From IMG/VR virus record IMGVR_UViG_3300032223_002681, positions 1 to 49,089 of that record: a stretch of 49,089 bases of DNA; one strand, 5' to 3'. Shown in pieces: positions 25,087-40,992 of the stretch. The translations under genes were made by a program, and so were the position numbers. The DNA is from a virus. Lineage: Duplodnaviria > Caudoviricetes. Position 1 is the first letter of the stretch, and every line of letters begins with the position of its first letter. A model generated the notes under the pieces. That model was not told the DNA's origin and ran no database searches. It worked only from the letters and a program-made list of their open reading frames with translations.

Positions 25087-25815
25087 ATGCCAACCATTGC
25101 GGAGGCTAGTGAGGTTGTAACAAACTTCCCAAACAAGTTTGTAAGCCCTTACGGAAACGACGAAATCGTTCCGTTGTACTCTTCTGTACCTTTGAAAAGT
25201 CCGGTGCAGGGTTGCTTGGAATGTATTGTTTGTGGTAGTTCATTAGTTCGTAGCCAAGTTATTGCAGACGTTAGCAACAGCAGATTTGGTTCCGGGGGGG
25301 TTGGGGCAGATAAAGTTTCAATAACTCCCTACCTACCTCCAAAATTTTACGGCCCGGGAGGGAGTTATGCTAAATCCCCCCAAAATCCCAGTGCATACTA
25401 TCGTTATCTTATACGGACAGATTGGGGCCAGTGTTTAATGTCTCGAAATGCTCCCGTAATAGATTCTTTTACTGCCGATGGCGTTGCTTATCATTCCTAC
25501 CCTTGGCCATTTGTACCGGGTCCGGGGGGAAAACGCAATCGGCCCGCACTTGTCGTGGATGGCTACACTGTTTGGGAAAGAAATTTAGATAAAACCACCG
25601 CAACTTGTGTTGCTGCAACCGGTAACTATGTTTCTGCGGCAAACAATCATTGGGGTTTGAATTTTGTCGGAACCATTTGGCCCCTCACTAATCTAAACTA
25701 CGGAACTGGTTGCGTTACGGGAACCGTTACTCCTTGCTGTCCAGTGGCACCAAGCGTTCCCTATAGTTATCTCAACCAACCCGGAACAATTTTGTGTAAT
25801 CAATTTATCCCTTAA
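25087..25815 (+). CDS. Cys-rich hypothetical protein, tandem paralogue 1
   Basis: Colinear with the next ORF along its whole length. Confidence 0.75.
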   Translation: MPTIAEASEVVTNFPNKFVSPYGNDEIVPLYSSVPLKSPVQGCLECIVCGSSLVRSQVIADVSNSRFGSGGVGADKVSITPYLPPKFYGPGGSYAKSPQNPSAYYRYLIRTDWGQCLMSRNAPVIDSFTADGVAYHSYPWPFVPGPGGKRNRPALVVDGYTVWERNLDKTTATCVAATGNYVSAANNHWGLNFVGTIWPLTNLNYGTGCVTGTVTPCCPVAPSVPYSYLNQPGTILCNQFIP

Positions 25816-26519
25816 TGCCTTCCATTCAAACAGCTTCAACTCCTGTAACCTCGTTCCCTAACGAGTTTTCTTCTCCGTACGGAAACGACGAAATCGTCCC
25901 TCTGTATTCATCGGTCCCCCTGAAAAGTCCGGTGCAGGGTTGCTTGCCGTGTGTAGTTTGCGGCAATTCTATTGTTAGAAATGAAGTTATTGCAGACGTT
26001 AGCAACAGCAGATTTGGTTCCGGGGGTATTGGCGTTAAAAAAATTAGTATAGCCCCCAGAAAGCCTCCAAAATTTTACGGCCCCGGTGGAAGTTATTCTA
26101 AAGACCCGCAAGACCCTAGCGGGTATTTCCGTTATCTTGTACTGACAGATTGGGATAATTGTTTAATGTCCACAAATGCGGCTATTGTAGATTCTTTCGT
26201 TGCAGACGGGATAACTTACACCAGTTACCCTTGGTCAGATAACTCGGGTCTTGTTGATGGGCATACCGTTTGGGAAGTCAATTCTGACTTAGTCACTGCC
26301 ACTTGCGTTGGGGCAACGGGCAACTATGTTTTGGCAGAAAACAATTATTCTGGGTTAAATTATGTAGGTCAGGTATTCCCCTTGAGCAACCTTCCGTATC
26401 TTGGGGGGTGTACCGACGAAACGGGAGGTCCTTGCTGCCCAAGCCCTGCCCCTACGGTGCCGTATACGTACCTAAACGAACCCGGGTCCGTACTTTGCAA
26501 CGTCTATTCGCTTAGCTAA
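25815..26519 (+). CDS. Cys-rich hypothetical protein, tandem paralogue 2
   Basis: TAATG stop/start overlap; shares SPYGNDEIVPLYSSVPLKSPVQGCL, VIADVSNSRFGSGG and PPKFYGPGGSY with the previous ORF. Confidence 0.75.
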   Translation: MPSIQTASTPVTSFPNEFSSPYGNDEIVPLYSSVPLKSPVQGCLPCVVCGNSIVRNEVIADVSNSRFGSGGIGVKKISIAPRKPPKFYGPGGSYSKDPQDPSGYFRYLVLTDWDNCLMSTNAAIVDSFVADGITYTSYPWSDNSGLVDGHTVWEVNSDLVTATCVGATGNYVLAENNYSGLNYVGQVFPLSNLPYLGGCTDETGGPCCPSPAPTVPYTYLNEPGSVLCNVYSLS

Positions 26520-26533
26520 AACTCGCATAATTT

Positions 26534-26920
26534 ATGAAACCCGTAATCCAATACAAATACGTAGCCCCAAACACCCAAGAGTTCCAACAACTCCAAACCT
26601 TCGCGGAGTCGTTCGACCACAAGATCATTCCACACCCGAGTGTCAATGTTTACGCTCATTATCGGGACGACACCTGTTTCGGCTATTCCGATCATGTTTT
26701 TGTGCCGGTAATCTACCCGGCATTCCACCCAGCCTTGACAAGGCCGCAGGACGTTCTTCAGGTAATGAACGACTGGCGTGCCCACTGCCAACTATCCGGA
26801 AAACCCGGATACATCGGCGTCCCTTTGGAAGATAACCCGCACCGAGCTAATTTCCCGGAAAAAATTATGGAAAAACTAGGGCTTGTCAGACATCGCAGAG
26901 AGCTGTATACACTTGCGTAA
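26534..26920 (+). CDS. hypothetical protein (T7 gp13-like position, possible GNAT-like fold)
   Basis: 128 aa between the nozzle region and the ejection proteins; C-terminal KIMEKLGL resembles a GNAT motif B end. Confidence 0.5.
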   Translation: MKPVIQYKYVAPNTQEFQQLQTFAESFDHKIIPHPSVNVYAHYRDDTCFGYSDHVFVPVIYPAFHPALTRPQDVLQVMNDWRAHCQLSGKPGYIGVPLEDNPHRANFPEKIMEKLGLVRHRRELYTLA

Positions 26921-26924
26921 TTCT

Positions 26925-27716
26925 ATGGGAGGAGCACCTCAAGTACAAGCACCTAGCCCCCTGCCGATGATTGCGGCAATGGGAGCGCAGCAGCAGGCCG
27001 TGAGCCAAGCTGAGCAAGCCCGTGCCGAAATGCTCAAAATCGCCGCAGGCATGCCGGTCGCCCAGTATACCCCGGATATTTGGGGTCAGGCCGGGGCATA
27101 CGGTACGGCCAAGGACACGGCTTACCTGAACGCGGTCAACTCGATGGCCCTTCAAGAATCGGTTGACCCCCTCGGAGCCAAGATCCGTAAGAACACCGAG
27201 CAGATGACGGCCAACATTACGGATCCTGAGGCTCTCAAGAAAGCCGCTCAGCAACAATTTTCCCAATACACACTCCCCGGGATGTACGGGACCGGGCTTT
27301 CCAACCAGAGCACAATCTACGGCAGTTCCCTCTTTGACAAGAATACCCTTGCCGGCATACAGCTTCAAGAAAATCTCGCCAGCCTCGGGGCGCCCTATCA
27401 AAACCTCCCCCAGACTGGCATTTCTCCCGGAATGGCAGCTTCTGCCCCTATGCAGGCCAAGGCCCAAAACGTGGCTCAAGCAAATGCTTTCCAGCAAGGC
27501 ATCCTTGGGGGCGCCGGCAATCTGCAGCAAAGCTACGAGCAGGGTCAGAACTCCCTCTACAACACGATGGGGCAGGATATTCAAGCCTACCAAGCCAATC
27601 AGCTTGCCGCCCAGCAAGCTAATGCTGCCGCTAGCTCTAATCAAACCGGAGCCATTTTTGGAGGCTTAGGCCAACTCGGCGGAGGGTTTTTAGGCGGATT
27701 GAGATTTTCTCGCTAA
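26925..27716 (+). CDS. internal virion / DNA ejection protein
   Basis: MGG start, Gln/Ala-rich body and Gly-rich hydrophobic C-terminus (GAIFGGLGQLGGGFLGG). Confidence 0.7.
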   Translation: MGGAPQVQAPSPLPMIAAMGAQQQAVSQAEQARAEMLKIAAGMPVAQYTPDIWGQAGAYGTAKDTAYLNAVNSMALQESVDPLGAKIRKNTEQMTANITDPEALKKAAQQQFSQYTLPGMYGTGLSNQSTIYGSSLFDKNTLAGIQLQENLASLGAPYQNLPQTGISPGMAASAPMQAKAQNVAQANAFQQGILGGAGNLQQSYEQGQNSLYNTMGQDIQAYQANQLAAQQANAAASSNQTGAIFGGLGQLGGGFLGGLRFSR

Positions 27717-27802
27717 CTTTGTAATTGCCAACCTAGATTTTTTGCCCTACAAGACACTCACACTTTAACCAACAAAACACTAACCCCTAACACACTACTA
27801 CT

Positions 27803-28300
27803 ATGGGAGGACACGGAGGAGGAGGAGGAGGCAACAACGACGCCGCCATGATGGCAATGATTCAACAGCAGCAGGCTGCACAGGCCGCGGCTCAAGCTGC
27901 AGCTTTGCAGGCTCAACGCGAAGCAGCCGCTGCAGCGCAACAGACTTCTGCCCAAGGGCAGGCTACTGCCGGAAGCCAAGCCGCACAGCAATATCTTGGC
28001 CAGCAAAACCAAGTTCAATCCGCCAAGGATGCTGCATCCGCGGCTTCAAATCTTCAGGCCAGCCAAGGTGGCGGAAACGCCGCAGCCGGGGGATTTAACC
28101 TTGGTAGCGCCAAGGCCCAAGCTGCCGCCAACCTTGGGGCAGCCTCAGGCACCCTTCCCGGAACCATGTCGAACACATTGATTCCTGTGGGTGCTTCCCC
28201 GGTTAATCCCGCCGCCACCACGGCTGGCTCGATGAACAAGGCTACCGCAGCTAACCAAATTATGCCTTCCACGCAGGGGATCACTTTCGGGGGATCCTAA
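27803..28300 (+). CDS. internal virion protein (Gly/Ala/Gln-rich)
   Basis: MGGHGGGGGG start and QA-rich helix, typical of podovirus ejection proteins. Confidence 0.65.
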   Translation: MGGHGGGGGGNNDAAMMAMIQQQQAAQAAAQAAALQAQREAAAAAQQTSAQGQATAGSQAAQQYLGQQNQVQSAKDAASAASNLQASQGGGNAAAGGFNLGSAKAQAAANLGAASGTLPGTMSNTLIPVGASPVNPAATTAGSMNKATAANQIMPSTQGITFGGS

Positions 28301-28313
28301 CCCTCGAAAGTAG

Positions 28314-30122
28314 ATGGCCCTTGACACCTCAGGCTTTAATCTTGCGATTCCGCAGGTTCCGGTAGAAACGCCGGCGCTGGCAAATCTTCCGGCGTTGAAC
28401 ATGCCCATGCAGGGCATGGCGTGGCAGCCCGTAAAGATTCAACAGCCCAGCTCCGCAATGGCCGAGGGCATCGCCGCGGGCCTTGGGGCGATTGGCAAGG
28501 GAATCACCGCTGCTTACCAGAACAAGCAAGAAGCGAAGAAGCATCAGGAAGAGCTGGCTATGAAGCAGCAGCAAATGGCTGCCTCTCAGGCCCAGCATGC
28601 CCAGACACTTGGCATGGCGCAACAGCGTCTCGGGATGGAAGGTGCTAGGCTGGGGCTTGAAGCTAAAAAGGAGGAGAATCTGCAGAGTTGGAGAAATCGC
28701 CAAAGTTCTCTCCCCAGCAAATTCAAGACTGTTGATTTCGGGGATTCCGGAGAAGGTCTAAATGACGCCCAGAAAGAATATCTTCAAAATCTTTCTACCG
28801 GAGAATCAGATTCTCAGGCTCCGTTGCCGGGAGAAGATCCGCTGTCTTCCCCTTCGGCACCTGAAATCCAATTAGACAACGCTCCTTTGGGCAGCTTGAC
28901 CACTCCGGTACCGGCTTTCCCCGTCTCACCGGCACTAAAGGCTGAAGACATTCCTACCATGTTGGCCAGCCAGCCTACTTTCCAACAACTGGCTTCTGAT
29001 GAAAGAGCCGGATTTAACGCTCCTATCAAAGCGCCTATCAATTTTGCGGACCCAAATGCCGCGAAGGGAGTTCTAAACAATCTTGGCTTATCTGAAATTC
29101 ACGCAATTTTGAACCCCTCTGACCGGCAAACAAGATTGAATGCCGCTCTCTCAGCGCAACCTGCCGCAGCCCCCCAGCACCCTGCCAAACACGCCTTCCG
29201 TACCGAAGAAGAAGCTTGGAAGGAAGCGCAACGTGACATTCCGGGTTGGCAGCCGGGAGACGTTCAGAAAGTCGATGGCGTCGATCCGACTACCGGAGAT
29301 CGGACAATCGGATATGTTGCAACTCGCAAACAAGTTGACCCACGTCTTGCTGCCACCGAGGCATATCGCAAAACCGTGGAAGGTCAACGCGAAGAGCAGT
29401 TAAAACTTCGTCAGCAAAACACACTGAACCAAGAACGAACCCAATTCTACAACATCCCCCAAATTAAACTTTTCTTGGGGCAAAACGGGATGCAGCAAAG
29501 CTTTTCCCGTTTTATGGCGGACTACGACAAGGTAGAGCCGGGATCTCCGGGGGCTGGTATTAGCCAACTTGGCCTTTTAGATATGTTTGCTAGGGCTGAA
29601 TCCGGAGGAAGGGTTACCAACACCCAAGCCGAAATGGCCCTGCAGGCTAGGTCGCTTAAAGAAAAATGGGAAACTCTCTTCAATACAAAATTTGGAGGCG
29701 GTGACGTTTTGTCTCGCGACCAAATGAAGCAAATGAGGGACGTGATGATGGAAGATTATGCTAAACAAGCAAGTTATGCTAACCAAGCTGTTGCTGGACA
29801 TCGTGATGTTCTAAGGGACCAAGGAGTTTCTACACTCCCAACCGATTACATTATGCCAATCCCCAAAGAAGAGGCCGAACATACCGTTGATTGGTACAAA
29901 ACCGAAATCCCCAAATTAAAACTACAGCACCAAGACGCGGTCAATCGAGGTGACCAACAGACTGCCGACCAAATCGAATCGCAGCTTGAGCAATATGGAG
30001 CCGCCGCGCTTGAGTTACGTAAAAAGATCGACAACTCCAAGTCTTCAATCATAAACTTGGAGGAAATCGAAAAAACTCCCCAAGGATGGTTTGGAGCTGC
30101 CGCTAAAAAGAAGAACCAATAG
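28314..30122 (+). CDS. internal virion / ejection protein
   Basis: AEGIAAGLGAIGKGI amphipathic segment plus coiled coils; precedes the giant gene. Confidence 0.65.
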   Translation: MALDTSGFNLAIPQVPVETPALANLPALNMPMQGMAWQPVKIQQPSSAMAEGIAAGLGAIGKGITAAYQNKQEAKKHQEELAMKQQQMAASQAQHAQTLGMAQQRLGMEGARLGLEAKKEENLQSWRNRQSSLPSKFKTVDFGDSGEGLNDAQKEYLQNLSTGESDSQAPLPGEDPLSSPSAPEIQLDNAPLGSLTTPVPAFPVSPALKAEDIPTMLASQPTFQQLASDERAGFNAPIKAPINFADPNAAKGVLNNLGLSEIHAILNPSDRQTRLNAALSAQPAAAPQHPAKHAFRTEEEAWKEAQRDIPGWQPGDVQKVDGVDPTTGDRTIGYVATRKQVDPRLAATEAYRKTVEGQREEQLKLRQQNTLNQERTQFYNIPQIKLFLGQNGMQQSFSRFMADYDKVEPGSPGAGISQLGLLDMFARAESGGRVTNTQAEMALQARSLKEKWETLFNTKFGGGDVLSRDQMKQMRDVMMEDYAKQASYANQAVAGHRDVLRDQGVSTLPTDYIMPIPKEEAEHTVDWYKTEIPKLKLQHQDAVNRGDQQTADQIESQLEQYGAAALELRKKIDNSKSSIINLEEIEKTPQGWFGAAAKKKNQ

Positions 30123-30130
30123 TTTAATTT

Positions 30131-33100
30131 ATGGCAACGCCCTCTGTGGTGACAGATACCGACAAGTTCCTTGAGCTCTTGTCACCAAAGAAGAAAGACG
30201 AGGGCGACGTACAACCCGAAGTTGCTCCCCAACCTGCCGCAACGACGGAACCTACCACCGCGACCCCCCAAGCGGATGCCGGCACCAAGGATTTCTTTGA
30301 GACTCGGCAGCTTACCGGAGGATACTCGTCTCCCACCCCTTCCGAGTTAAACGCAGAGCTTTTCGGGGCTCCTTCCCCACACCCAGAATTGTTAAAGAAA
30401 GCTCAAGAAGGGCTTGGGCCGCTACCGCCAGACCAAAAGAAAAATCTCTTAGAAAATACGGACGAATTTCTGGCAAAGCTCGAGCCAAAAAAGCGTCCCG
30501 GCGAAGGGGGTACTTCTGAGTATTCCGCTCTGGAGGGTTCCGTAATGTCCCGGGACCCCGCCATACCCCTTAACACGCAGGAAGAGTACCTTCTACGATC
30601 TCTCGATGTGGAGCAACGGCACAAGTTTATCGAAGCGCACCCCGAGATAGAGCTACCCTTCGATCTCCACAAGAGCAATTACGATTACCGCAACGTAAAG
30701 ACCGAAAAGGGGAAGAGTATTTGGGAAGATGTCAAGGGAGTTGCCTCTGGGGTTGGGAGTTTCCTGCAGGGCACCGCAGAAGCTGCCGGAGCGGTTGGGC
30801 ATGACATTAACCAGATCATGGGGGGGCTTCTTTATGAAGAGGACCCAGTTCTCGCGCTACAAACTAAAAACATTGTAGAAGGTAAACCCGTACCAACCAA
30901 AGAAGAACTCCAAAAAGCCGGCGAGTCAATTTCCTACGGACAAAATCTTGCCCAAACGGGAACCGACGTTATTACGGCAGGAGATCAGCTTCTTTCTTAT
31001 CCCGAAAAGTTCAAGAATCTCTGGCAGGTCCATTCTGCCGGTGGGTTTAACTCGCTCGACAAGCTTCGGGAAGAGCGGGGTTACCAAACCCCAGAGCAAT
31101 CTTACCAAAATGATTTAGATCGCACGACAATTCTGCGTGAGCAAGCCCGTAAGCAGATTTACGCTCCTACGGCAGCCCTGCGAATGGGAACTGACATTCT
31201 TACGGGAGCGCAAGAGCTTAAAGAAGCTGGCTGGGTCGCTCCGTCAAATGCCCTCCAAGCTCTGTACAAAACACATCTCACCGAAACTGCTTCGGAAAAA
31301 ATGGCTAAAGACCCAACATTAACCGAAGAGCAGGCTAACGCCGAAGTTTACAAGGATGCCGCAGACCTGCTCAAGCAGCGTGCGGAAAAAATTGCCCCCG
31401 AGTTTGTGGCGAAAGGGTATACCGAAGCCGGAAAGCCAGAAATTCGTTTTGCCGCAGACATTCCCACCGGCGCAGAGTTTGGTGTGCTCGGGGCAGGTCT
31501 TGGCATGGTTGGCAAGGGCATTGCCGGGACCGAAAGACTCCTAGCAAATGCCGGTCGTGATCCCGAGGCCATAGCAGCCGCAAATCTAAAACGACTTCAA
31601 GCCGCGGAAGCCGAGCAAAAGCTTGTAGGCCAGATTCCCGAGAAGCCGGGATATGTTCCGGTTGGGATGCAGACCCCCGCTCTCGGACAGACACCAAAAC
31701 CGCTATTCTACTTCCCTCGCTTCGGTACCCTTGCCGGTTGGGGAGAAAACACCGCAAATGCTATCGAAAAATTTACCGGTCACGCGGCGGTCCCCCTTTC
31801 GTTGGCTGGGCTCGGCGCTGCAACCAGCGGGGAGGGACACCGAACGGCAGGGTTTTTTGAGGGTCTGGGCCTTTCGCTTGGTTTGAAGGGCCTTGCCGAA
31901 GGTGCCGGCGTTGTACGTTCGCTTGATCAAGCAGCCGAGCTTTTTGGCGGAAAAAATGCCCTCCCCTCGGATGTCATGAAAGCTGCCGGGGCTGCCGAAA
32001 CTTCTTCAAAAGCTGCCAAGAAGCTTTTTGGCGGCGATACTTTCTTAAAAGCTCTCGGGCGCGACGGGGCAGACTTTATCGCCAAGAATGCGGTGCCTCT
32101 GGCGCTCAAGAATGTCCACGGGGCAACCCTTGCCTATGCGATGGGCCTACTTAATGATACGCCTTCCGAAGATATGCCCGAGCAGGTTGCATTCGGTACT
32201 CTGATGAGCGCGGCTCCCGGTTTGTTCGGCCACAGCCTCGGTGAGTCACACGGGGAGATGCGTATGAGGGCCGGAAAAGAGGCCGCAGAGGTAAACAATT
32301 TTAACCGCGGGCTAGACGATCAGTCTCGGACGAATATCAGCGCTTCCCGCCTGTGGATGATGCACCTCGCTAAGCTGCGGAAAGCCGTAATTCGAGCCCG
32401 TAATACCGCCGCCGACTCGCAAGCTCAAACTAATAACCCAAGCGCCACTCCCGAGCAGCGTGCCAGATGGTCCAAAATTGCTGCTGACAGCCAAAATATC
32501 GTCGATTTCCACCAGCGCAAGCTTAACCAAGCCCTGACAACCAACCCAGCCACGATGGCCGAGTTTGGTCGCCAGTTCAATCTTGCCGCTGCACGGATGA
32601 GCAATTTCCTAAACGGAACTAATAAAGCCGGTCAGGAAAACGTTTCTTTCCAGTTCCTCACCACTGATCAGATTGCTGAAAAACTCTTACAGCATTCTCC
32701 TGAGCTTCAGATGATGATTGCTCGGGGGCAGGGAGAGGAAGCTAGGCAGAGGGCACTTACTTCCGCGCAGCAGCGCGGGTTTGTTTCGACCCCCGAATCT
32801 GGGATTAGAATGGATCCCGCCCGACCCACTATTGCGATCAACGTAGGCAACCTGATGAACAACCCGCGTGGGGTGATTGAGACGCTCTATCACGAGGTTG
32901 GCGAAGCCGCGCAAAAGATCCCCCAAGTAAAGGCCGTAATCGACAAGGCGGGGGTTATTGACCAACTATTCAGCCGAACCGTCAAGGGGGTCAACGGGGA
33001 GACACTGCGGACGATTCCGGGGCTGCTCGACGAGGGCAAGCTTTATCAGATGTTCATCAACAAATATGTATACGGGATGTCTGCCCCAGAAATTCTCAAT

Positions 33101-36100
33101 CTTGGTCGAGAAATGGGGGTTTTAGATGAGCAACGTCCGGATCAGCTTGATTTCCAAAAAGTCGTCGAACGCATGCGTAGTGAGGTAATCGCCGACACTC
33201 TGGGAGAGGGGTTCGAGAAATCTTTTGTCAACGGGTCCCCAGCATTTGAAAATGTGCGTCAATGGGCACGCACCAAGGTTGAGTCCGAAAGGATAAAAGC
33301 CTTAATCCTGAAGGTGCTCGGCAGCGGAGGGGAAGACCCGCGGAATGTTCTGTATTCGCACCCAGCTTCCGGGGTTGGCGAGTCTCTTACCCCCGAGGTT
33401 CGTGCGGCAGTCTCCCAAGCGATTCAGTCCATGCGCGATTTGGGCGGAGTTACTACAGCAGTGGACGAAACCGGTGCCGTTTCCGGGGAAACCCGCGAGG
33501 CCCCTAGGATGTCAAAGAAAGAGGTCTCAACAAATCCTCTTTTGTCGGATCGCTACTTAAAAAATTCTGGGCTGGTAAAGACCCAGCTCCGCGCTGTCAT
33601 TCTCGATGCCGACGGAAACCCAGTTTCCAAGCCGATTGACATCACGGACCCGACGGCATTTGAAGGTACTTGGCAATTCAAGCCTGACGGCACTGCAAGT
33701 CGGGTAAATGGGTTTGGTAACCGACCTCCCGAGCTTCCTCCGGGAGTCGTCGTACCTCCCGGCGGGCAAATCATTTTTGAGCACCAGATAGTCACCGAGC
33801 CGGACGGCGTAACCCCAGTCTGGAACAGCCGAAAAGACGTAAAGAAGCTTCTAAAGAGCCGGTCACAGCTTATCCGCGATGCGATTACCAACGCCTATAA
33901 GGGTGAGCCGGGAGGGATGCAGGCGTATAGCGAAGACAACCTTAGCTTCCGCGGAACGCTTACCCCCGATCAGATCGCAGCGATCCAAGCCCTGCCCGAG
34001 AGTATTGTTCCTCTCAAGGTCAAGAACCATATTTTCGAGATTAACAACGCAATCCAGCGGGGGCAGCGACAAAACATCGACTATTCAACCCACGTTGGGA
34101 AAAATGGCGAATATGTTTCTTCCGCTCCCACAATACGGGACGTTCAGTGGATCGGGATGCATTTCTCGAAAGACGGCAACTTCACCGGCACGGCGTTGTC
34201 ATGGGATGCACTTCATAACAAATTCCGCTTGTGGAAGCAGCGTCTTCCCGGTCGTTTTGACCTGTGGAACGGGGACTCTCAGGCGATGTACGACCAATTC
34301 GTTGGCGAGTATTTGCCCAATCAAGCCTCCGGAATCCCAAATGAAACGGCGCTGGACAAAGATCCTGAAATCTCGAAAAAGAAGCGGGATGTGTTTAACG
34401 ACTTCCTGAACTTTGCCAACGCAAATACCCGTGCGATCAACCCCGACCGCACTATAATTCCCACCAAGCGAGGAGAAAAGCGAGGAATGGCGGACAACGT
34501 CCTCCGTTCTTTTCGACTCGATTCGATCATGGATATTGCCGACTCTCCGGTACCGGGAGTCAAACTCAATCCTGACGCAATTTACAACAATTTCTTGCCC
34601 AAAGAGTCCGTTAAACCGGCAAAACCCGCGGGGGAAGAAACTAACCCGATTCTCAAGGCTCTCGGGGCAGTCAAGGCCAGCTACGTTGGTCCTGAGCAGC
34701 GTACCCCGTATGCCCAGCCGGTGCGGGCTTCAAACCAAGACGTGCAGCGTATTTCCGAAGAATACGTAAAAAGTGCCGGTATGGAGTACCGTCCACACGG
34801 TCAAGCGGTTCCGGTCAACGAGGAGCTTGCCAAGCGCATTGCCGACCATTACGAGACCGCCAAGAACGAGCCCTTGAAGCCCGAGGTCAAGAAGGCTTAC
34901 ACAGCCCTTGCCAACGAGGTCGTTGACCAATGGAAGGCTTTCCAAAAGGCCGGATACACCGCCACCCCTTGGACCGGAGAGGGCCAGCCCTACGCCAACT
35001 CCGCAGAGATGATGAAGGATGTCCGGGACAACAAGCACCTGTATTACTACACGACCGAGAGTGGGTTCGGCAGCGGCATTACCGGCAAAATGCGTGCCGA
35101 AAACCCGATGCTGCAGGACTCCGGTGTCAATTTCAACGGCGCCGAGAACGTGCCCGTCAACGACGTGTTCCGCGTTGTGCACGACATCGTTGGTCACGGG
35201 GCAAATGGCTACGAGTTTGGTCCGAAGGGCGAGTTCAACGCCTATCTGGAGCACAGCCGCATGTTCTCTGACGCCGCCAAGCCGGCTCTTGCTGCCGAGA
35301 CTCTGGCCCAGAATAGCTGGGTCAACTACGGCCCGCATCTCCGGGATGAAAGCGGAAATATCGCCAAGAAGGGCGAGAAAGGCTACGTGCCTGTCACCGA
35401 GCGTCCGTTTGCTGAGCAGAAAAACATCGCGCTTCCTCAGGAGTTTATTGACGCAGCCGAGAAACAGGCCCAAGCCGGGACCAAGCCGGGACCAAGCTTT
35501 TTACCTGCCAAAGGCGAGACCAAGCCGGTGCCGACTCAGGAAGAGCTCGACGAGATGAAGGCTAGATTGCCGAAGTATGAGGTGTCCTCTTATGACCATC
35601 AGAAAAACGGAATTACCACAATTTATCTCCGATCCCCTGAAGATAAAGGCATAGAACCTACGGCACAGGCTGAAGTTCAAATGCTACCCGACGATTATCC
35701 CGGTATCCTCGGGATTAACCATACCGAAAGGAAATCAGAATACCCCGGATTTGGCGAAGCGTTGTATCGAGAAATAGCCAAGTTTGCCCAACAGCACGAC
35801 CTTACCGATTTGGTGGGGCTTACAAACAAAGCTTCTACAAATAGAAGAGAAACCCTGTTTGAGACCTCCGAAAAACTACCCACAGGAGAAAATACTTTTT
35901 CGATGACCAGTAAGGTTGCTCCGGGCATTAACTATCTCCCCGCCAAAAAACTCACCGTCCAGCACCCCTCGAAGGAAAAGGAGGGCAGCGTCGGCGGGGA
36001 GCTCGATCTGGTTCACTTTGGGCCGTCAGGGCTTAAAGTAACCGACCCCAAGAAGTTTGGTAAAGGTATTGCCACCCCCACGGACCTGCAGGGCGGGTAC

Positions 36101-39100
36101 AAGACCTATTTCTACCTGAACAACGGAAAGAATTACGAAGCCTCGATGCGCGGAAAGACCCCGTATGTCGCCAAAGTCGATGGCAACAGCCTGTATGACC
36201 TGAGCAAGGATCCGCTTGGCGTGAACGGAATCCTTAACCGGGAAGAGCGAGATGACAGGATCAAAAAGGCGGGATTTGCTGGATATTTCAGCCCCAAGAA
36301 GTTCAACGGTTCCTTCGATGCAGTTGCCCTCTATAAGCCGACTAAGCTGACCGAGGTGCAGCAGGGTCGGGAAATTTTCACCGGACCCAAGCAGTCAAAG
36401 GAGTTTGGGGTTAGCTTCTTGCCAGCCGGAAAGACCAGCTCCCCTGAGTTCAAAAAATGGTTCGGTGAGAGCCAAGTCGTAGACGAAGAAGGCAAGCCTC
36501 GCGTGATGTATCACGGCACGGATCGAGGCTTTAACAAGTTCCAAAAGGGTACTACGTTCTTTGCTTTCAAGCCTGAGTTTGCGGACGAGTTTGCGAATCG
36601 AGCGGCATTAGGATGGCAAGCGGAATCTGAAGAAGCCTACGATCCGAACAAAAGTATAGAAGATTACAAGGATGATCTGGAGATGGAGCCAGATCAAAAA
36701 CAGACTCCTGTCATCGTCCCCGTATATTTACAAGCAAAAAATATCTTCGACGCTAACAATCCTGATCACATGCGGAAGATCGGGTTACCTCCCGGAACGA
36801 TCACAGACTTTTCTCACCTAGAGAAAAATCAACCCCGGATGGAAAAAGCCGGGTTCGATTCGTATTACGATTACGAGTACGGACCTGAGGAAGATAAAAC
36901 GGGCATATTTGTCTTTGACCCTAAGCAGGTAAAATCTGCTACCGGCAACGTGGGTACGTATTCTCCGGAAAACGCTGACATCCGCTACCTCCCCGCCAAG
37001 CTAGACGAGGCTCACGCCAAGGCTATTGAGTCTGGTGATACGGAGGAAGCGCAGAGGCTGGTTGATGAGGCGGCGAAAAAGGCTGGGTATTCTATTGGGC
37101 CTGTTTATCATCATGGTCATTTTGATCCATCTTATGACGCCGTTCCAAAAACACAGCAAGGTATGCACTTTGGATCTGAAGAAGCGGCAAGGCAGAGGGC
37201 TTATGATAAGCAACCAGATGACGAAAGGGCTTCTATAAAAGCAGATAAAGACCCTGATACTGGGTTGTGGCATTGGTCAACCAATAGCTTTGATAGCTTT
37301 GACTTTACAGATGGATTTAGTTCTGAAAAAGCCGCCATACAAAATGCTTATGATAGCATTGCAGAAATGCACATGAATCAAGATTCAGAAGTGGATGATT
37401 TGGGAGTTATGACAAAAGCATATTTGTCATTGAAAAACTTAAAAAAAGTTAGAGACCAAGGAAATGATTGGCAAGTTGCCATGCAAAAAGCAAAGCAGGA
37501 GGGATATGATGGCCTTGAGTATAAGAATGAGTTTGAGGACAAGGGATCTACTTCCTATGTGATATTTAATCCAGAGCAGGTTAAATCCGCAGACCCCGCA
37601 ACCTACGATGACCAAGGCAATCTGATCCCGCTTTCGCAGCGGTTCAACCCGGAGTCAAACGACATTCGGTACCTCCCCGCCAAAAAAGGCGTTGACGAGG
37701 GAACCCAAACCAACGAATCTTTACCCACTGATGAACAACAAACTGAAAGTAACACCGAAGCTAAAGCAGCTGGCATCCAAGCTGGAGGCCAAAGCCAAGA
37801 AGACCGGAATCGACTTCTCGGCGGGCTTGCGTCTGTCGCCAGAGGAGCGCAAGGCTCAGGTGCAGAAAGTGTACCGGGAACCTCGGGAACAGCTCCTCGG
37901 AAAGAGGTAGAAGAGGCCGCTCTCCGCAAGCATGCGGAAGAAAATGGTCTCATGCGGGATCCGGATGCCTTTTTCAAGCAATGGCAGCTCGACGGATCTG
38001 AGGCCGGCGGTGAGCACCAAGTTTCTTTCCCTCTCGGGGATAACGTTGTCAAGCGCACCCCGAATCCCTACTACCCAACGTGGGCAGACTATTTTGACTC
38101 GCTGCAGATCCACAACACGCTCTTCCCCAAGGCGGCATTGACCTTCCGCGGGTTCCAGAATGTTGAAGGTAGCGGTGGCGTGGACATTGACGGCACCAAG
38201 TGGCCTGCCGGCCTATACTCCGAGGTGTCACAGCCGTTCCTGAAGATCAAACGCGGCCTGTCGGTACCGGAGACCGACGACCTCATGAAGATGATCGGGT
38301 TCCGTCGCACCCTGCCGATGGAATACGTCAATGATGAGCTTGGTATCAAGATCAAGGACCTGCATGGCATGAACGCCGTCATGCTCGAGGATGAGAACGG
38401 CAAGGAGTTTCCTTACGTGATTGACTCGACCATCGTGCCCACACAGGCGAAGGAAGAACAGCCTCGTGTGGATCTTCAGGGTCACGTGATTGTGAAAAAC
38501 CCCGAGGCCGATTTTGTTGCCAAACCTAAGATTCTTGTCAACTTTCTGCCGGCCTCGCAGCGGATCAACCTAGAGGATTACGCCGACAAACCAATGTTTG
38601 CTCTCCCGGCTGATCGTATGGGCGTAGGTACCAAGTATGTCGGGCCTACCGACAGCAAGAAAAAGTTGAGCGTCGAGGCGCAGGGAGGGCCTGAGCACAT
38701 GACTCTTCTCAACCGTGGCGTCTGGGCTTTCTCAAACGAGGGTCCTGCCTCCACCTTTGCCAACCGCGTAGACAAGCTCGCCGAAAAGCACGGCACCGAC
38801 AGTGTTCTTGTCGCGGTCACCCTCCAGAGTCCTATCAACCACCTGAAAAACCCCACTGGGCAGCTCGGATACGTGGAAGCGATGGAACAGGCCCGCGATA
38901 CAAAGAATTTGACCCAGAAGCAGCTAGATGCCCAGATCAAAGAAATGGCCGGGTCCATAGTTGCCAGCAAAGGAAAAGACATGGACGAAAATGTCCGGGC
39001 CAAATGGAAGAAAATAAATTCCTTCACCAAATTTGCCGATGCCGTCCGGTCCAAGCAGCTTAATTTTGGCGACATGGAACCTTTCCTCACTCAGATGCAA

Positions 39101-39463
39101 CGCAGCAAGCTGCCAATCAGCGGGAAAGAGCTACAATCCCTTGGACTTTTGCCTCAGGACATCGCCCGGGACCTGTCCACAGATTGGATTTTTGACCTCC
39201 CTAACGACACCGTGGTCGGGCTGTTTGAGGTCAAAAAAGGAACCCGTCCAACTCAGGACAACACCCACTACTCCTATCCTTGGAGCGTCGCCGGCAAACC
39301 AATCGGCTTCCTGAAAGACATTTATCATGTTAAGGGGCTCACCACACACCCCGGAATCCAAAAATCCACCAGCCTCGCTTGGCCCCTACAGAGGGCGCTG
39401 CCGGAATTGGACAACTTGAGTAAGGCTCTAGCCGATTTAAAACCGATTGTCACATACCGCTAA
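30131..39463 (+). CDS. giant (3110 aa) polyvalent internal virion protein: zincin-like, HDxxGH domain, GNAT-like, up to three ADP-ribosyltransferase-like, kinase and unknown C-terminal domains
   Basis: FKKWFGES...MYHGT...VFDPKQVKSATGNVGTY (ART-PolyVal); a second ART ending QVKSADPATYDDQGNLIPLSQRF; GGEHQV...HNTLFP...SQPF...DLHGMN...VID (Kinase-PolyVal); GFGEALY (GNAT); last gene of the ejection block. Confidence 0.85.
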   Translation: MATPSVVTDTDKFLELLSPKKKDEGDVQPEVAPQPAATTEPTTATPQADAGTKDFFETRQLTGGYSSPTPSELNAELFGAPSPHPELLKKAQEGLGPLPPDQKKNLLENTDEFLAKLEPKKRPGEGGTSEYSALEGSVMSRDPAIPLNTQEEYLLRSLDVEQRHKFIEAHPEIELPFDLHKSNYDYRNVKTEKGKSIWEDVKGVASGVGSFLQGTAEAAGAVGHDINQIMGGLLYEEDPVLALQTKNIVEGKPVPTKEELQKAGESISYGQNLAQTGTDVITAGDQLLSYPEKFKNLWQVHSAGGFNSLDKLREERGYQTPEQSYQNDLDRTTILREQARKQIYAPTAALRMGTDILTGAQELKEAGWVAPSNALQALYKTHLTETASEKMAKDPTLTEEQANAEVYKDAADLLKQRAEKIAPEFVAKGYTEAGKPEIRFAADIPTGAEFGVLGAGLGMVGKGIAGTERLLANAGRDPEAIAAANLKRLQAAEAEQKLVGQIPEKPGYVPVGMQTPALGQTPKPLFYFPRFGTLAGWGENTANAIEKFTGHAAVPLSLAGLGAATSGEGHRTAGFFEGLGLSLGLKGLAEGAGVVRSLDQAAELFGGKNALPSDVMKAAGAAETSSKAAKKLFGGDTFLKALGRDGADFIAKNAVPLALKNVHGATLAYAMGLLNDTPSEDMPEQVAFGTLMSAAPGLFGHSLGESHGEMRMRAGKEAAEVNNFNRGLDDQSRTNISASRLWMMHLAKLRKAVIRARNTAADSQAQTNNPSATPEQRARWSKIAADSQNIVDFHQRKLNQALTTNPATMAEFGRQFNLAAARMSNFLNGTNKAGQENVSFQFLTTDQIAEKLLQHSPELQMMIARGQGEEARQRALTSAQQRGFVSTPESGIRMDPARPTIAINVGNLMNNPRGVIETLYHEVGEAAQKIPQVKAVIDKAGVIDQLFSRTVKGVNGETLRTIPGLLDEGKLYQMFINKYVYGMSAPEILNLGREMGVLDEQRPDQLDFQKVVERMRSEVIADTLGEGFEKSFVNGSPAFENVRQWARTKVESERIKALILKVLGSGGEDPRNVLYSHPASGVGESLTPEVRAAVSQAIQSMRDLGGVTTAVDETGAVSGETREAPRMSKKEVSTNPLLSDRYLKNSGLVKTQLRAVILDADGNPVSKPIDITDPTAFEGTWQFKPDGTASRVNGFGNRPPELPPGVVVPPGGQIIFEHQIVTEPDGVTPVWNSRKDVKKLLKSRSQLIRDAITNAYKGEPGGMQAYSEDNLSFRGTLTPDQIAAIQALPESIVPLKVKNHIFEINNAIQRGQRQNIDYSTHVGKNGEYVSSAPTIRDVQWIGMHFSKDGNFTGTALSWDALHNKFRLWKQRLPGRFDLWNGDSQAMYDQFVGEYLPNQASGIPNETALDKDPEISKKKRDVFNDFLNFANANTRAINPDRTIIPTKRGEKRGMADNVLRSFRLDSIMDIADSPVPGVKLNPDAIYNNFLPKESVKPAKPAGEETNPILKALGAVKASYVGPEQRTPYAQPVRASNQDVQRISEEYVKSAGMEYRPHGQAVPVNEELAKRIADHYETAKNEPLKPEVKKAYTALANEVVDQWKAFQKAGYTATPWTGEGQPYANSAEMMKDVRDNKHLYYYTTESGFGSGITGKMRAENPMLQDSGVNFNGAENVPVNDVFRVVHDIVGHGANGYEFGPKGEFNAYLEHSRMFSDAAKPALAAETLAQNSWVNYGPHLRDESGNIAKKGEKGYVPVTERPFAEQKNIALPQEFIDAAEKQAQAGTKPGPSFLPAKGETKPVPTQEELDEMKARLPKYEVSSYDHQKNGITTIYLRSPEDKGIEPTAQAEVQMLPDDYPGILGINHTERKSEYPGFGEALYREIAKFAQQHDLTDLVGLTNKASTNRRETLFETSEKLPTGENTFSMTSKVAPGINYLPAKKLTVQHPSKEKEGSVGGELDLVHFGPSGLKVTDPKKFGKGIATPTDLQGGYKTYFYLNNGKNYEASMRGKTPYVAKVDGNSLYDLSKDPLGVNGILNREERDDRIKKAGFAGYFSPKKFNGSFDAVALYKPTKLTEVQQGREIFTGPKQSKEFGVSFLPAGKTSSPEFKKWFGESQVVDEEGKPRVMYHGTDRGFNKFQKGTTFFAFKPEFADEFANRAALGWQAESEEAYDPNKSIEDYKDDLEMEPDQKQTPVIVPVYLQAKNIFDANNPDHMRKIGLPPGTITDFSHLEKNQPRMEKAGFDSYYDYEYGPEEDKTGIFVFDPKQVKSATGNVGTYSPENADIRYLPAKLDEAHAKAIESGDTEEAQRLVDEAAKKAGYSIGPVYHHGHFDPSYDAVPKTQQGMHFGSEEAARQRAYDKQPDDERASIKADKDPDTGLWHWSTNSFDSFDFTDGFSSEKAAIQNAYDSIAEMHMNQDSEVDDLGVMTKAYLSLKNLKKVRDQGNDWQVAMQKAKQEGYDGLEYKNEFEDKGSTSYVIFNPEQVKSADPATYDDQGNLIPLSQRFNPESNDIRYLPAKKGVDEGTQTNESLPTDEQQTESNTEAKAAGIQAGGQSQEDRNRLLGGLASVARGAQGSGAESVPGTSGTAPRKEVEEAALRKHAEENGLMRDPDAFFKQWQLDGSEAGGEHQVSFPLGDNVVKRTPNPYYPTWADYFDSLQIHNTLFPKAALTFRGFQNVEGSGGVDIDGTKWPAGLYSEVSQPFLKIKRGLSVPETDDLMKMIGFRRTLPMEYVNDELGIKIKDLHGMNAVMLEDENGKEFPYVIDSTIVPTQAKEEQPRVDLQGHVIVKNPEADFVAKPKILVNFLPASQRINLEDYADKPMFALPADRMGVGTKYVGPTDSKKKLSVEAQGGPEHMTLLNRGVWAFSNEGPASTFANRVDKLAEKHGTDSVLVAVTLQSPINHLKNPTGQLGYVEAMEQARDTKNLTQKQLDAQIKEMAGSIVASKGKDMDENVRAKWKKINSFTKFADAVRSKQLNFGDMEPFLTQMQRSKLPISGKELQSLGLLPQDIARDLSTDWIFDLPNDTVVGLFEVKKGTRPTQDNTHYSYPWSVAGKPIGFLKDIYHVKGLTTHPGIQKSTSLAWPLQRALPELDNLSKALADLKPIVTYR
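37731..37910 (+). CDS. candidate nested out-of-frame 59-aa basic protein
   Basis: MNNKLKVTPKLKQLASKLEAKAKKTGIDFSAGLRLSPEERKAQVQKVYREPREQLLGKR overlaps a low-complexity linker of the giant ORF; TTGACG-17-GAATCT lies upstream. Confidence 0.5.
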   Translation: MNNKLKVTPKLKQLASKLEAKAKKTGIDFSAGLRLSPEERKAQVQKVYREPREQLLGKR

Positions 39464-39503: not shown

Positions 39504-39662
39504 ATGCCTCTCAAAACATCGACATCCCCGGAAGCCTTCAAGTCCAATATCAAGGCTGAACTTGCTGCCGGCAAACCCCAAAAACAAGCGGTGGCAATCG
39601 CCTACGCTCAGAAGAGAAAAGCTAACATGCTGCACCGTATGGGCCGCGGCAAAAAGAAGTAA
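39504..39662 (+). CDS. small basic phage protein
   Basis: MPLK...AFKSNIKAELAAGKPQKQAVAIAY, a pattern recognised from small phage proteins; Lys/Arg-rich tail. Confidence 0.75.
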   Translation: MPLKTSTSPEAFKSNIKAELAAGKPQKQAVAIAYAQKRKANMLHRMGRGKKK

Positions 39663-39666
39663 AATC

Positions 39667-40992
39667 ATGGCTACAGACCTGTCCCAAATCAAAGACCCCT
39701 CCGACGTTGTCGCCCTCGTGGTAGACAACGGCCTCTTCGTTGAAATCGCGATCAAACTCGCTAAAACCTACAAAAAGGTCTACTACTACGTTCCTTGGGA
39801 AAGCGCCTTTGCCAAGATGAATCTGGGCATGATCGGCACCGGGCTCGAGGGAATCGAGGTCGTGGACAGCATTTATGGTCCTCACTTTGATGACGTGGAT
39901 GTCTTTGTCTTCCCAGACATTTATTTTGGCTACGAGCAGGAAATGCTTGAGAAGATGGGTAAAAAGGTCTGGGGAAGCCGCACCGGCGAGTGCCTAGAGC
40001 TCAAACGCGAAGGGATGAAGGAGATCCTGAAAGCACTCGACATGCCGGTCGGCAAATTTACCCATATCAAGGGAATGGCTAATCTCAGGTCATTCCTCAA
40101 GGAAAACGAGAACGTCTACGTCAAGATTGACAAGTTCCGGGGCACTTTTGAAACCTTCCACAGCGCCAACTACAAGGAAGTTGAGCCCAAGCTTGACGAG
40201 GTCGAGTTTAACCTCGGCGCCTTCAAGCACGTGATCGAGTTCACCGTCGAGGAGGCTATTCCTGAGTGCGCTGAGGTGGGGACCGATTGCTGGGTCATCA
40301 CCGATGACGCCGGCGAGGCTCATTACCCTAAACACACGATCTCCGGCATTGAAATCAAAGACGTGGGATTTGCGTCTATCTTCAAGAAGTACGAGGACAT
40401 CCCCGAGGTGGTTACTCGGTTTAACACCCGGATGAAGCCTGTTTTCGCCGCCTATAACTGGCGCGGGTTTATGTCTACCGAGGTCCGCGTCGGTAAAGAC
40501 ATGGACCCCTACATGATCGACTTATGCGCCCGCGCCCCCTCGCCTCCCAACGAGCTCTATCAGGAGCAGTACAGCAATCTTGCTGAGTGTGTCTGGGCCG
40601 GAGCTAACGGTATCGTTATCGAACCCGAGTCCACCGCGAAATACGGCGCTGAAATTATGCTCCACAGCTCGTGGGCAGACAAGGGGTGGCAACCTGTTAG
40701 TTTCCCCGATGAGTTGCGTGATCGCGTCAAACTTCGCAACGCGACCTGCATTGACGGCGTTTATTATGCCATTCCGCAGGCTTGCGGCCTACCTGAAGTC
40801 GGAGCTGTCATTGGTCTTGGCGACACTCTCAAGGAAGCACTTGATGACGCCGTTGAGAATGCCGAGCAGGTCACCGGTTACTACCTCGAAGCAAAGATGT
40901 CTGCGATCGACTCAATCAAAGAAGAGTGTGATCGGTTGGAAAAGCTCGGACTCAACATGTTCGACGACACGGGAAGTGAAGATAACGCTTAA
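39667..40992 (+). CDS. ATP-grasp ligase (PurD/GARS-like fold)
   Basis: KVWGS...LELKR, VYVKID, TVEEAI...EVGTD and WRGFMSTE...YMIDLCARAPSP correspond to the GARS ATP-grasp motif series (xxVKAD, IEEFL.GxE, YxG, EFNxRxGDP). Confidence 0.75.
   Translation: MATDLSQIKDPSDVVALVVDNGLFVEIAIKLAKTYKKVYYYVPWESAFAKMNLGMIGTGLEGIEVVDSIYGPHFDDVDVFVFPDIYFGYEQEMLEKMGKKVWGSRTGECLELKREGMKEILKALDMPVGKFTHIKGMANLRSFLKENENVYVKIDKFRGTFETFHSANYKEVEPKLDEVEFNLGAFKHVIEFTVEEAIPECAEVGTDCWVITDDAGEAHYPKHTISGIEIKDVGFASIFKKYEDIPEVVTRFNTRMKPVFAAYNWRGFMSTEVRVGKDMDPYMIDLCARAPSPPNELYQEQYSNLAECVWAGANGIVIEPESTAKYGAEIMLHSSWADKGWQPVSFPDELRDRVKLRNATCIDGVYYAIPQACGLPEVGAVIGLGDTLKEALDDAVENAEQVTGYYLEAKMSAIDSIKEECDRLEKLGLNMFDDTGSEDNA

Follow-up and report, generated by a model that had tools for sequence, protein, structure and literature searches.

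Introduction

Since 2017, when the class was defined and the release of its domains by embedded peptidases was predicted (Iyer 2017, PMC5512222, accessible text), it has been an open question whether polyvalent phage proteins act whole or are cut into separate effectors. The window analysed here, a virus record of 49,089 bases that is approximately 78% complete, raises this question in a single gene. Among its genes are those for a terminase, virion proteins, a lysozyme, and DNA polymerase A (Pfam, PHROG), and one plus-strand ORF (30131..39463) encodes a giant polyvalent protein of 3110 aa in which a short peptide motif, [FY]LP[AK], recurs between domains. Here, we ask what this motif marks, whether it is maintained as a peptide or as DNA, and whether the chain might be cut at it.

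Results

The giant ORF and its gene setting

The ORF at 30131-39463 closes a run of virion genes, and terminase and virion PHROG matches lie upstream of it on the same strand. Its assignment is based on Pfam matches to ART-PolyVal and Kinase-PolyVal and on the match of a structural model of its N-terminal core to polyvalent proteins in BFVD. As in other polyvalent proteins, disparate activities (GNAT, ART, and kinase) are joined in one chain, family-specific domains are present (PF18760 and PF18762 above cut-off in this protein; PBECR5 and LPD23 in relatives), the architecture varies among relatives, and the setting is that of the virion genes of a terminase-portal phage. An RNA polymerase domain was not found in it by Pfam.

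The gene context suggests that the 3110-aa protein is located in the virion, and it may be packaged and ejected, given its gene position and the family precedents phi24B gp47 and N4 gp50. Three upstream genes encoding Gln/Ala/Gly-rich proteins of 277, 165, and 602 aa (26883..30122, +), for which no Pfam or PHROG match was found, are likely to encode companion ejection proteins, as judged from position and composition. A membrane anchor in the giant protein is not supported, because no 19-residue segment reaches a hydropathy of 1.3.

Other neighbours include a gene directly after the giant ORF (39562-40992, +) that is present in 26/60 loci, with 59-93% identity in the 14 rows listed and no Pfam or PHROG match, and two adjacent paralogous Cys-rich genes (25087-25815 and 25815-26519, +) that have a common N-terminal region of about 60 aa and were each matched in 39/60 loci. 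No relative of the core was found in GTDB prokaryote genomes, and the core, the putative portal, and ORF 22948 had no relative among cultured phages.

Seven motif copies open seven cassettes

The original prediction was that the protein is a string of effector cassettes delimited by seven [FY]LP[AK] linkers. All seven were found at the places it gave, in the C-terminal half of the ORF, the F/Y codons starting at 34592, 35498, 35933, 36416, 36986, 37670, and 38543 (aa 1488, 1790, 1935, 2096, 2286, 2514, and 2805 of 3110). The amino acid composition predicts 0.18 copies, none of 20,000 shuffles contained more than four, and there were no copies in the nine other large ORFs of the window that were tested. 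All seven are of the Leu form. The near-identical DNA noted for three of the linkers was also borne out: TA[CT]CTCCCCGCCAA is common to copies 3, 5, and 6, which have 13-14 of 14 nt in common, and the other four copies differ in their codons.

Each motif opens a cassette, and four of the seven cassettes match known enzyme families. Motif 1 (FLPK, 34592..34603, +) is the border between the core and the payload, across which identity to the homologue L028 rises from about 45% to 70-100%. It opens cassette 1 (302 aa; 34592..35497, +), an HDxxGH domain that matches phrog_3170 (E 6.7e-16), a family of unknown function, and has homologues in 11 loci; its look-alikes are viral clusters of 267-320 aa. 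Motif 2 (FLPA) opens cassette 2 (145 aa; 35498..35932, +), which is a GNAT acetyltransferase as judged from homologues and a predicted fold. PF00583 was matched by 9/15 rows, the nine being all the homologue rows that carry cassette 2, with no match in the row from the window itself; the model matches GCN5 (E 1.6e-5), and the predicted fold of the domain has a pLDDT of 70-90, the motifs lying immediately outside it. An 11-nt tandem duplication is located just 5′ of motif 2 (35468-35500).

Cassette 3, opened by motif 3 (YLPA; 161 aa; 35933..36415, +), appears ART-like by profile comparison, which gave 94% (E 1.4e-7) with deep alignments and 56% with shallow alignments; it had no Pfam match, and its predicted fold was of low confidence and too poor for use. 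Cassettes 4 (motif FLPA; 190 aa; 36416..36985, +) and 5 (motif YLPA; 228 aa; 36986..37669, +) match ART-PolyVal in Pfam, with E values of 1.4e-13 and 4.3e-8, respectively, and cassette 5 has a 40-nt internal repeat (37169-37355). Cassette 6 (motif YLPA; 291 aa; 37670..38542, +) matches Kinase-PolyVal (Pfam E 3.6e-22). Cassette 7 (motif FLPA; 306 aa; 38543..39463, +) is the C-terminal domain, belongs to a cluster of 15 last segments, and is followed by no further motif. Atlas look-alikes gave no family for cassettes 1 and 7, and neither Pfam nor PHROG gave one for cassette 7. The domains that had been listed between the linkers thus agree with Pfam for segments 4, 5, and 6 and with homologues and fold for the GNAT, and the third ART-like domain (segment 3) agrees with the profile comparison.

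The motif is confined to payload borders across the family

A query with core aa 900-1490 found 48 other proteins, giving 49 with this one, and a metagenome scan for relatives found none with the single sequence and 39 with an alignment. The window and 88 fetched loci yielded 61 non-duplicate genes after duplicates and one fragment were dropped. The motif follows the core in 46/49 homologues, three having no payload motif, and the family consensus is G-[GDQK]-[IVPL]-[RNQS]-[FY]-[ML]-P-[ASKE]-[KRE]. A weight matrix gave 202 matches in 78,869 payload aa of the 61 genes, one in 82,362 core aa, and two in 200,630 aa of other open frames; because this family also served to train the matrix, the payload count is partly circular and inflated, whereas the contrast with core and neighbours is not affected. 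Less circular checks were provided by anchored tests of the +1 residue and of the Pro and by a second protein set, each described below.

The linker idea would fail if the copies fell inside folded domains. It was found that the motif fell in 0/46 Pfam stretches, in comparison to a mean of 16.4 and a minimum of 7 with random placement. In 45/61 genes, motif 1 is no more than 15 aa from where the core ends, and no copy lies at a C-terminus. The +1 residue of a copy matched that of the other copies in the carrier protein in 40/46 cases (null 20.9), part of which may be explained by kinship and shared gene pools; the core tree was made by a quick method that gave long-branch warnings. In some cases the whole protein uses a variant, for example [FY]SP (L010) or F[AS]P (L068).

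Many segments between motifs exceed 600 aa, and 145/197 segments fall into 26 recurring families, the number and order of which vary between proteins. The payloads of relatives include a DNA methylase, PBECR5, a class I methyltransferase, and DUF7178. Short repeated sites are thus located between autonomous domains, as in a polyprotein, and the motif marks the cassette borders. There are also pairs of motifs only 7-50 aa apart (P0011-P0015, aa 1342-1352; L009, aa 1502-1516; P0008, aa 2236-2264), and these look like empty slots after cassette loss.

Cassettes are exchanged at the motif

A fixed domain order in homologues would likewise have spoken against the cassette reading, and both content and order were found to vary. 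The core of L001, which was found on a contig shared with L002, is about 80% identical to that of the window protein, and L001 is without cassettes 2, 4, and 5. Both of its junctions are inside a motif, the left flank being that of one window motif and the right flank that of another, in protein and in DNA. In L028, the core is 38% identical and cassettes 1, 6, and 7 are 87-90% identical, the rise in identity starting just past motif 1, and in P0016 the cassette order differs.

These cases were placed in a wider context by an all-against-all comparison. At 45% identity or more, 203 of 497 distinct alignment ends had a motif no more than 12 aa away (null 7.1%), and at 30% identity or more, the number was 326 of 1164 (null 6.3%). 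Therefore, because the motifs are located outside domains and the breakpoints of homologues are at the motif, cassettes are swapped at the motif: they come and go, change their order, and move from one phage to a distant one, and the crossovers fall inside the motif.

The motif is constrained as a peptide

These crossovers raise the possibility that the motif is nothing but a landing pad for recombination, a stretch of DNA homology copied along with each cassette and having no function as a peptide. The 13-14 of 14 nt common to three copies in the window would be in keeping with this, as would an excess of codon sharing at the Phe and in the flanks: the Phe codon is TTC in 156/190 motif copies, compared to 290/463 of the same dipeptides elsewhere, and flanking codons match at 0.45-0.49 compared to 0.35-0.37. 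However, within-gene motif pairs have the same Leu codon in 33/153 cases (0.22, expected 0.22) and the same Pro codon in 160/422 (0.38 compared to 0.33). When 26 cassette ends were located by an upstream anchor that excludes the Pro, Pro was present in 25, with its three codon positions conserved at 0.96, 1.00, and 0.35. Moreover, the exact run that copies within a gene have in common has a median of only 6 nt (463 pairs).

Because the third positions of the Leu and Pro codons are free, and the first and second positions fixed, selection acts on the peptide, with DNA likeness secondary, and we consider a landing pad without peptide function improbable. The residual DNA likeness is what shared ancestry or conversion would give, and the DNA micro-homology is likely a by-product that is used for exchange. 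The original prediction had given a protein signal and recombination homology equal standing as roles of the linker; exchange at the motif stands, and equality does not, because the codon data favour a constraint on the peptide.

A different function for the residue after the Phe was also considered, in which F-M-P copies are internal translation starts, so that a single gene would yield several proteins. In most copies across the family the Phe is followed by Met, and the sequence beyond it resembles natural N-termini. However, Shine-Dalgarno-like words precede 10/136 motif Met codons in comparison to 421/3606 other Met codons, and the Leu copies, which include all seven copies in the window, mostly have non-start codons. 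On these counts the internal starts were rejected, and we regard them as scarcely credible.

The N-terminal core carries a zincin-like site

The conserved N-terminal core (aa 1-1487; 30131..34591, +) contains no copy of the motif. It does contain a candidate enzyme that the original prediction had missed, an HExxH..E site. In the aligned core rows, HExxH with a downstream Glu was found in 38/40 and HExxE with the Glu in 2/40. The candidate third ligand, E1018 in the window protein (33182-33184), is invariant in 40/40 rows and is located in a predicted helix. The HExxH is 550-581 aa ahead of the first motif in 39/50 genes.

In the window protein the zincin-like motif, which is HExxH in most relatives, reads HEVGE (aa 921-925; 32891..32905, +). 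The second His is replaced by Glu in this phage and in its two nearest relatives, L002 and P0002, with the cassette motifs all intact. At 32891-32905, HExxH to HExxE is a two-base change. Of the features of a gluzincin, the downstream Glu is present, and the helix departs from HExxH; in view of the HExxH of 38/40 relatives, this copy is at best a substituted member of the zincins. Glu is able to bind zinc. His substitutions of this type are often taken to indicate inactivity (PMC3650047, accessible text).

Searches with Pfam, with a PDB profile, and by fold did not confirm a zincin fold. A profile of the metallopeptidase region found 0 PDB sequences, Foldseek on the core found nothing in the PDB at E<=0.001, and no zincin was listed in a wide fold search with the 626-residue core model, which starts at aa 870 and is of low confidence over the strands. 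Peptidase rows in Pfam were weak (E 0.04-0.13). A complex prediction with the HExxH core of L007, Zn, and a motif peptide scored 0.00 and was used as evidence in neither direction.

The core is closed by a predicted WYL/Sm-like β-barrel (33947..34567, +), directly before motif 1. The nine best fold-search rows were WYL regulators, and alignment to PafBC gave a VIA Z of 8.8 with an rmsd of 2.2 over 85 residues, which is near the level that possibly means a common arrangement; a Pfam WYL match was not found. Single-stranded nucleic acid or the motif is a possible ligand for this barrel.

A model of cleavage at the motif and its alternatives

The model that we propose is of a polyvalent ejection protein that works as a polyprotein and whose zincin-like HExxH..E domain cuts it at the motif, and we give it close to an even chance. 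The protein has a fixed N-terminal core followed by exchangeable cassettes in series, with the peptide motif at the start of each; it would likely be packaged in the virion, and the HExxH..E site of the core would divide it into single enzymes at the time of its ejection into the host or afterwards. The freed GNAT, ART, and kinase would then act on host proteins or nucleic acids. We infer cleavage from the layout, in which the first copy is at the end of the core and none is C-terminal, and because small enzymes have to reach their targets. A cut before the F/Y would suit a thermolysin-like preference and leave N-end-rule residues; X-Pro ends would result from a cut after it. Release of a new cassette would require its insertion at a motif, the copies of which provide 6-15 nt of micro-homology; one sequence would therefore both license and guide exchange.

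Self-cleavage is favoured by the HExxH plus Glu of 38/40 rows, by the steady spacing to the first motif, by the protein-specific +1 residue, by the HExxH of every distant giant with a significantly repeated [FY]xP (see below), and by the processing of P1 DdrB. Against it are the HExxE of this phage next to intact motifs, N4 vRNAP, which has HExxH and stays whole, the 3/49 homologues that are motif-free, the many segments longer than 600 aa, the distant giants that have HExxH and no significant repeat, and the fold searches above. No cultured member of this core family was found.

The substitution could alternatively mean that the motif is cut by a host protease or another phage protein and that the HExxH domain is otherwise employed, for example in cell-wall penetration. 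Cassettes move freely between HExxE and HExxH cores, in keeping with such a division of labour, and peptidoglycan digestion has been proposed for domains of this type in phi24B gp47 and phi14:2 gp65 (accessible text of the sources). However, no other protease-like gene was recognised among 33 other window ORFs that were scanned with Pfam, the spacing from HExxH to the first motif is fixed, and the motif flavour follows the protein, so that we consider cutting by another protease unlikely.

It may also be that the motif is not cut and that each bead bears it as a tag by which the protein is docked or handled while it is packaged, unfolded, or threaded, the binder being the WYL/Sm-like barrel of the core, a chaperone, the portal, or the ejection channel. 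Selection on the peptide would fit a tag equally well, the small predicted barrel is directly before motif 1, and a tag needs no active protease and so is consistent with HExxE; in addition, ejection of the intact chain, as beads on a string, is described for N4 vRNAP in the accessible literature. In contrast, the core domains, which would also have to be threaded, are almost free of motifs, and no precedent was found in the literature searched. We regard a docking tag as somewhat unlikely.

Repeated motifs beyond the core family

Cassette 3 had 177 relatives among representatives of 50% clusters, and 115 of the 146 new ones fetched are proteins of at least 1500 aa. HExxH is present in 104 of these 115 giants, only 27 of which match the profile of this core. 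A significantly repeated [FY]xP was found in 38/115 (M in 17, L in 6, S in 6, others in 9), some types of which are probably unrelated repeats. All 38 have HExxH, and 224/241 copies lie after it; the simple repeat test gave no significant result for the other 77, among which HExxH is likewise present in 66. A radical SAM domain and another, second domain of metallopeptidase-like type are among the motif-bounded payloads of distant members (P0125 aa 1654-1813; P0166 aa 1303-1357).

Eight giant proteins of cultured phages were inspected by eye, without statistics. An analogous border, [IL]-x-F-S after ART domains, was seen in F116 p60, gp57 of Bacillus phage Dartukuta, and one protein of Dolichospermum phage Dfl-JY45, which suggests a wider family of boundary motifs; Jess A gp39 had no such border.

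A broader form of the cleavage model is that hundreds of uncultured phages encode a zincin of their own that recognises an [FY]-[MLSAQ]-P code specific to the lineage and frees a volley of host-modifying enzymes from one ejected giant protein, the code doubling as the insertion point for new cassettes. We give this somewhat less than even chances. If true, polyvalent proteins would have a general rule of processing, and unknown early anti-host effectors could be read from sequence alone.

Discussion

The cassette system is real and well supported, and the cleavage system is a proposed one. However the motif works chemically, it places the exact borders of domains in many cassettes that are uncharacterised, each of which is a candidate early host-takeover or counter-defence enzyme, and it shows how phages swap payloads between distant cores. 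A family-wide boundary motif together with a candidate protease makes the question of whole versus cut polyvalent proteins testable.

Most features of the giant protein are those of the polyvalent class described by Iyer 2017 (PMC5512222, accessible text): a giant multidomain chain of variable architecture, with ART-PolyVal, Kinase-PolyVal, GNAT, and an HExxH metallopeptidase-like site, for which self-processing and an analogy to polyproteins were proposed there. In contrast to the protein described here, in which the motif bounds cassettes and marks crossovers, the word "linker" is absent from the main text of that paper, and no boundary or cleavage sequence is named in the text accessible. 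In the accessible portions of the literature searched (PMC9503650, PMC5512222, PMC13434306, PMC3650047, and two preprints, with few subscription papers covered), no polyvalent boundary motif is described.

P1 DdrB and N4 vRNAP are virion proteins with an HExxH domain. According to the accessible sources, P1 DdrB is processed before packaging (PMC5512222), whereas N4 vRNAP (gp50), the beads on a string mentioned above, is packaged and purified whole (PMC5512222, PMC13434306); gp50 is not cut, and its RNA polymerase domain was not found by Pfam in our protein; an array of motif-bounded exchangeable enzymes is not reported in these sources for either protein. The 2811-aa phi24B gp47, present in virions by proteomics, has been proposed as an ejection protein with a metallopeptidase domain (bioRxiv 10.64898/2026.04.10.717836); it differs in having LPD5, LPD1, and LPD38 and in that its peptidase was proposed to act on peptidoglycan, and no cassette motif is described in the accessible text.

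The protein described here can also be compared with two systems outside the class. Eukaryotic RNA virus polyproteins combine one chain, short repeated sites, and an embedded protease, and polymorphic toxin cassettes exchange a variable payload by recombination at a conserved border. Here, unlike in either, many payloads stand in series in a structural gene of a DNA phage and their order is not fixed; in addition, the immunity genes of polymorphic toxins were not seen. The analogy to polyproteins and toxin cassettes was also drawn in PMC5512222 (accessible text). The polyvalent class and its predicted self-processing were already known; what is new, relative to the sources accessible, is the boundary motif that delimits the cassettes.
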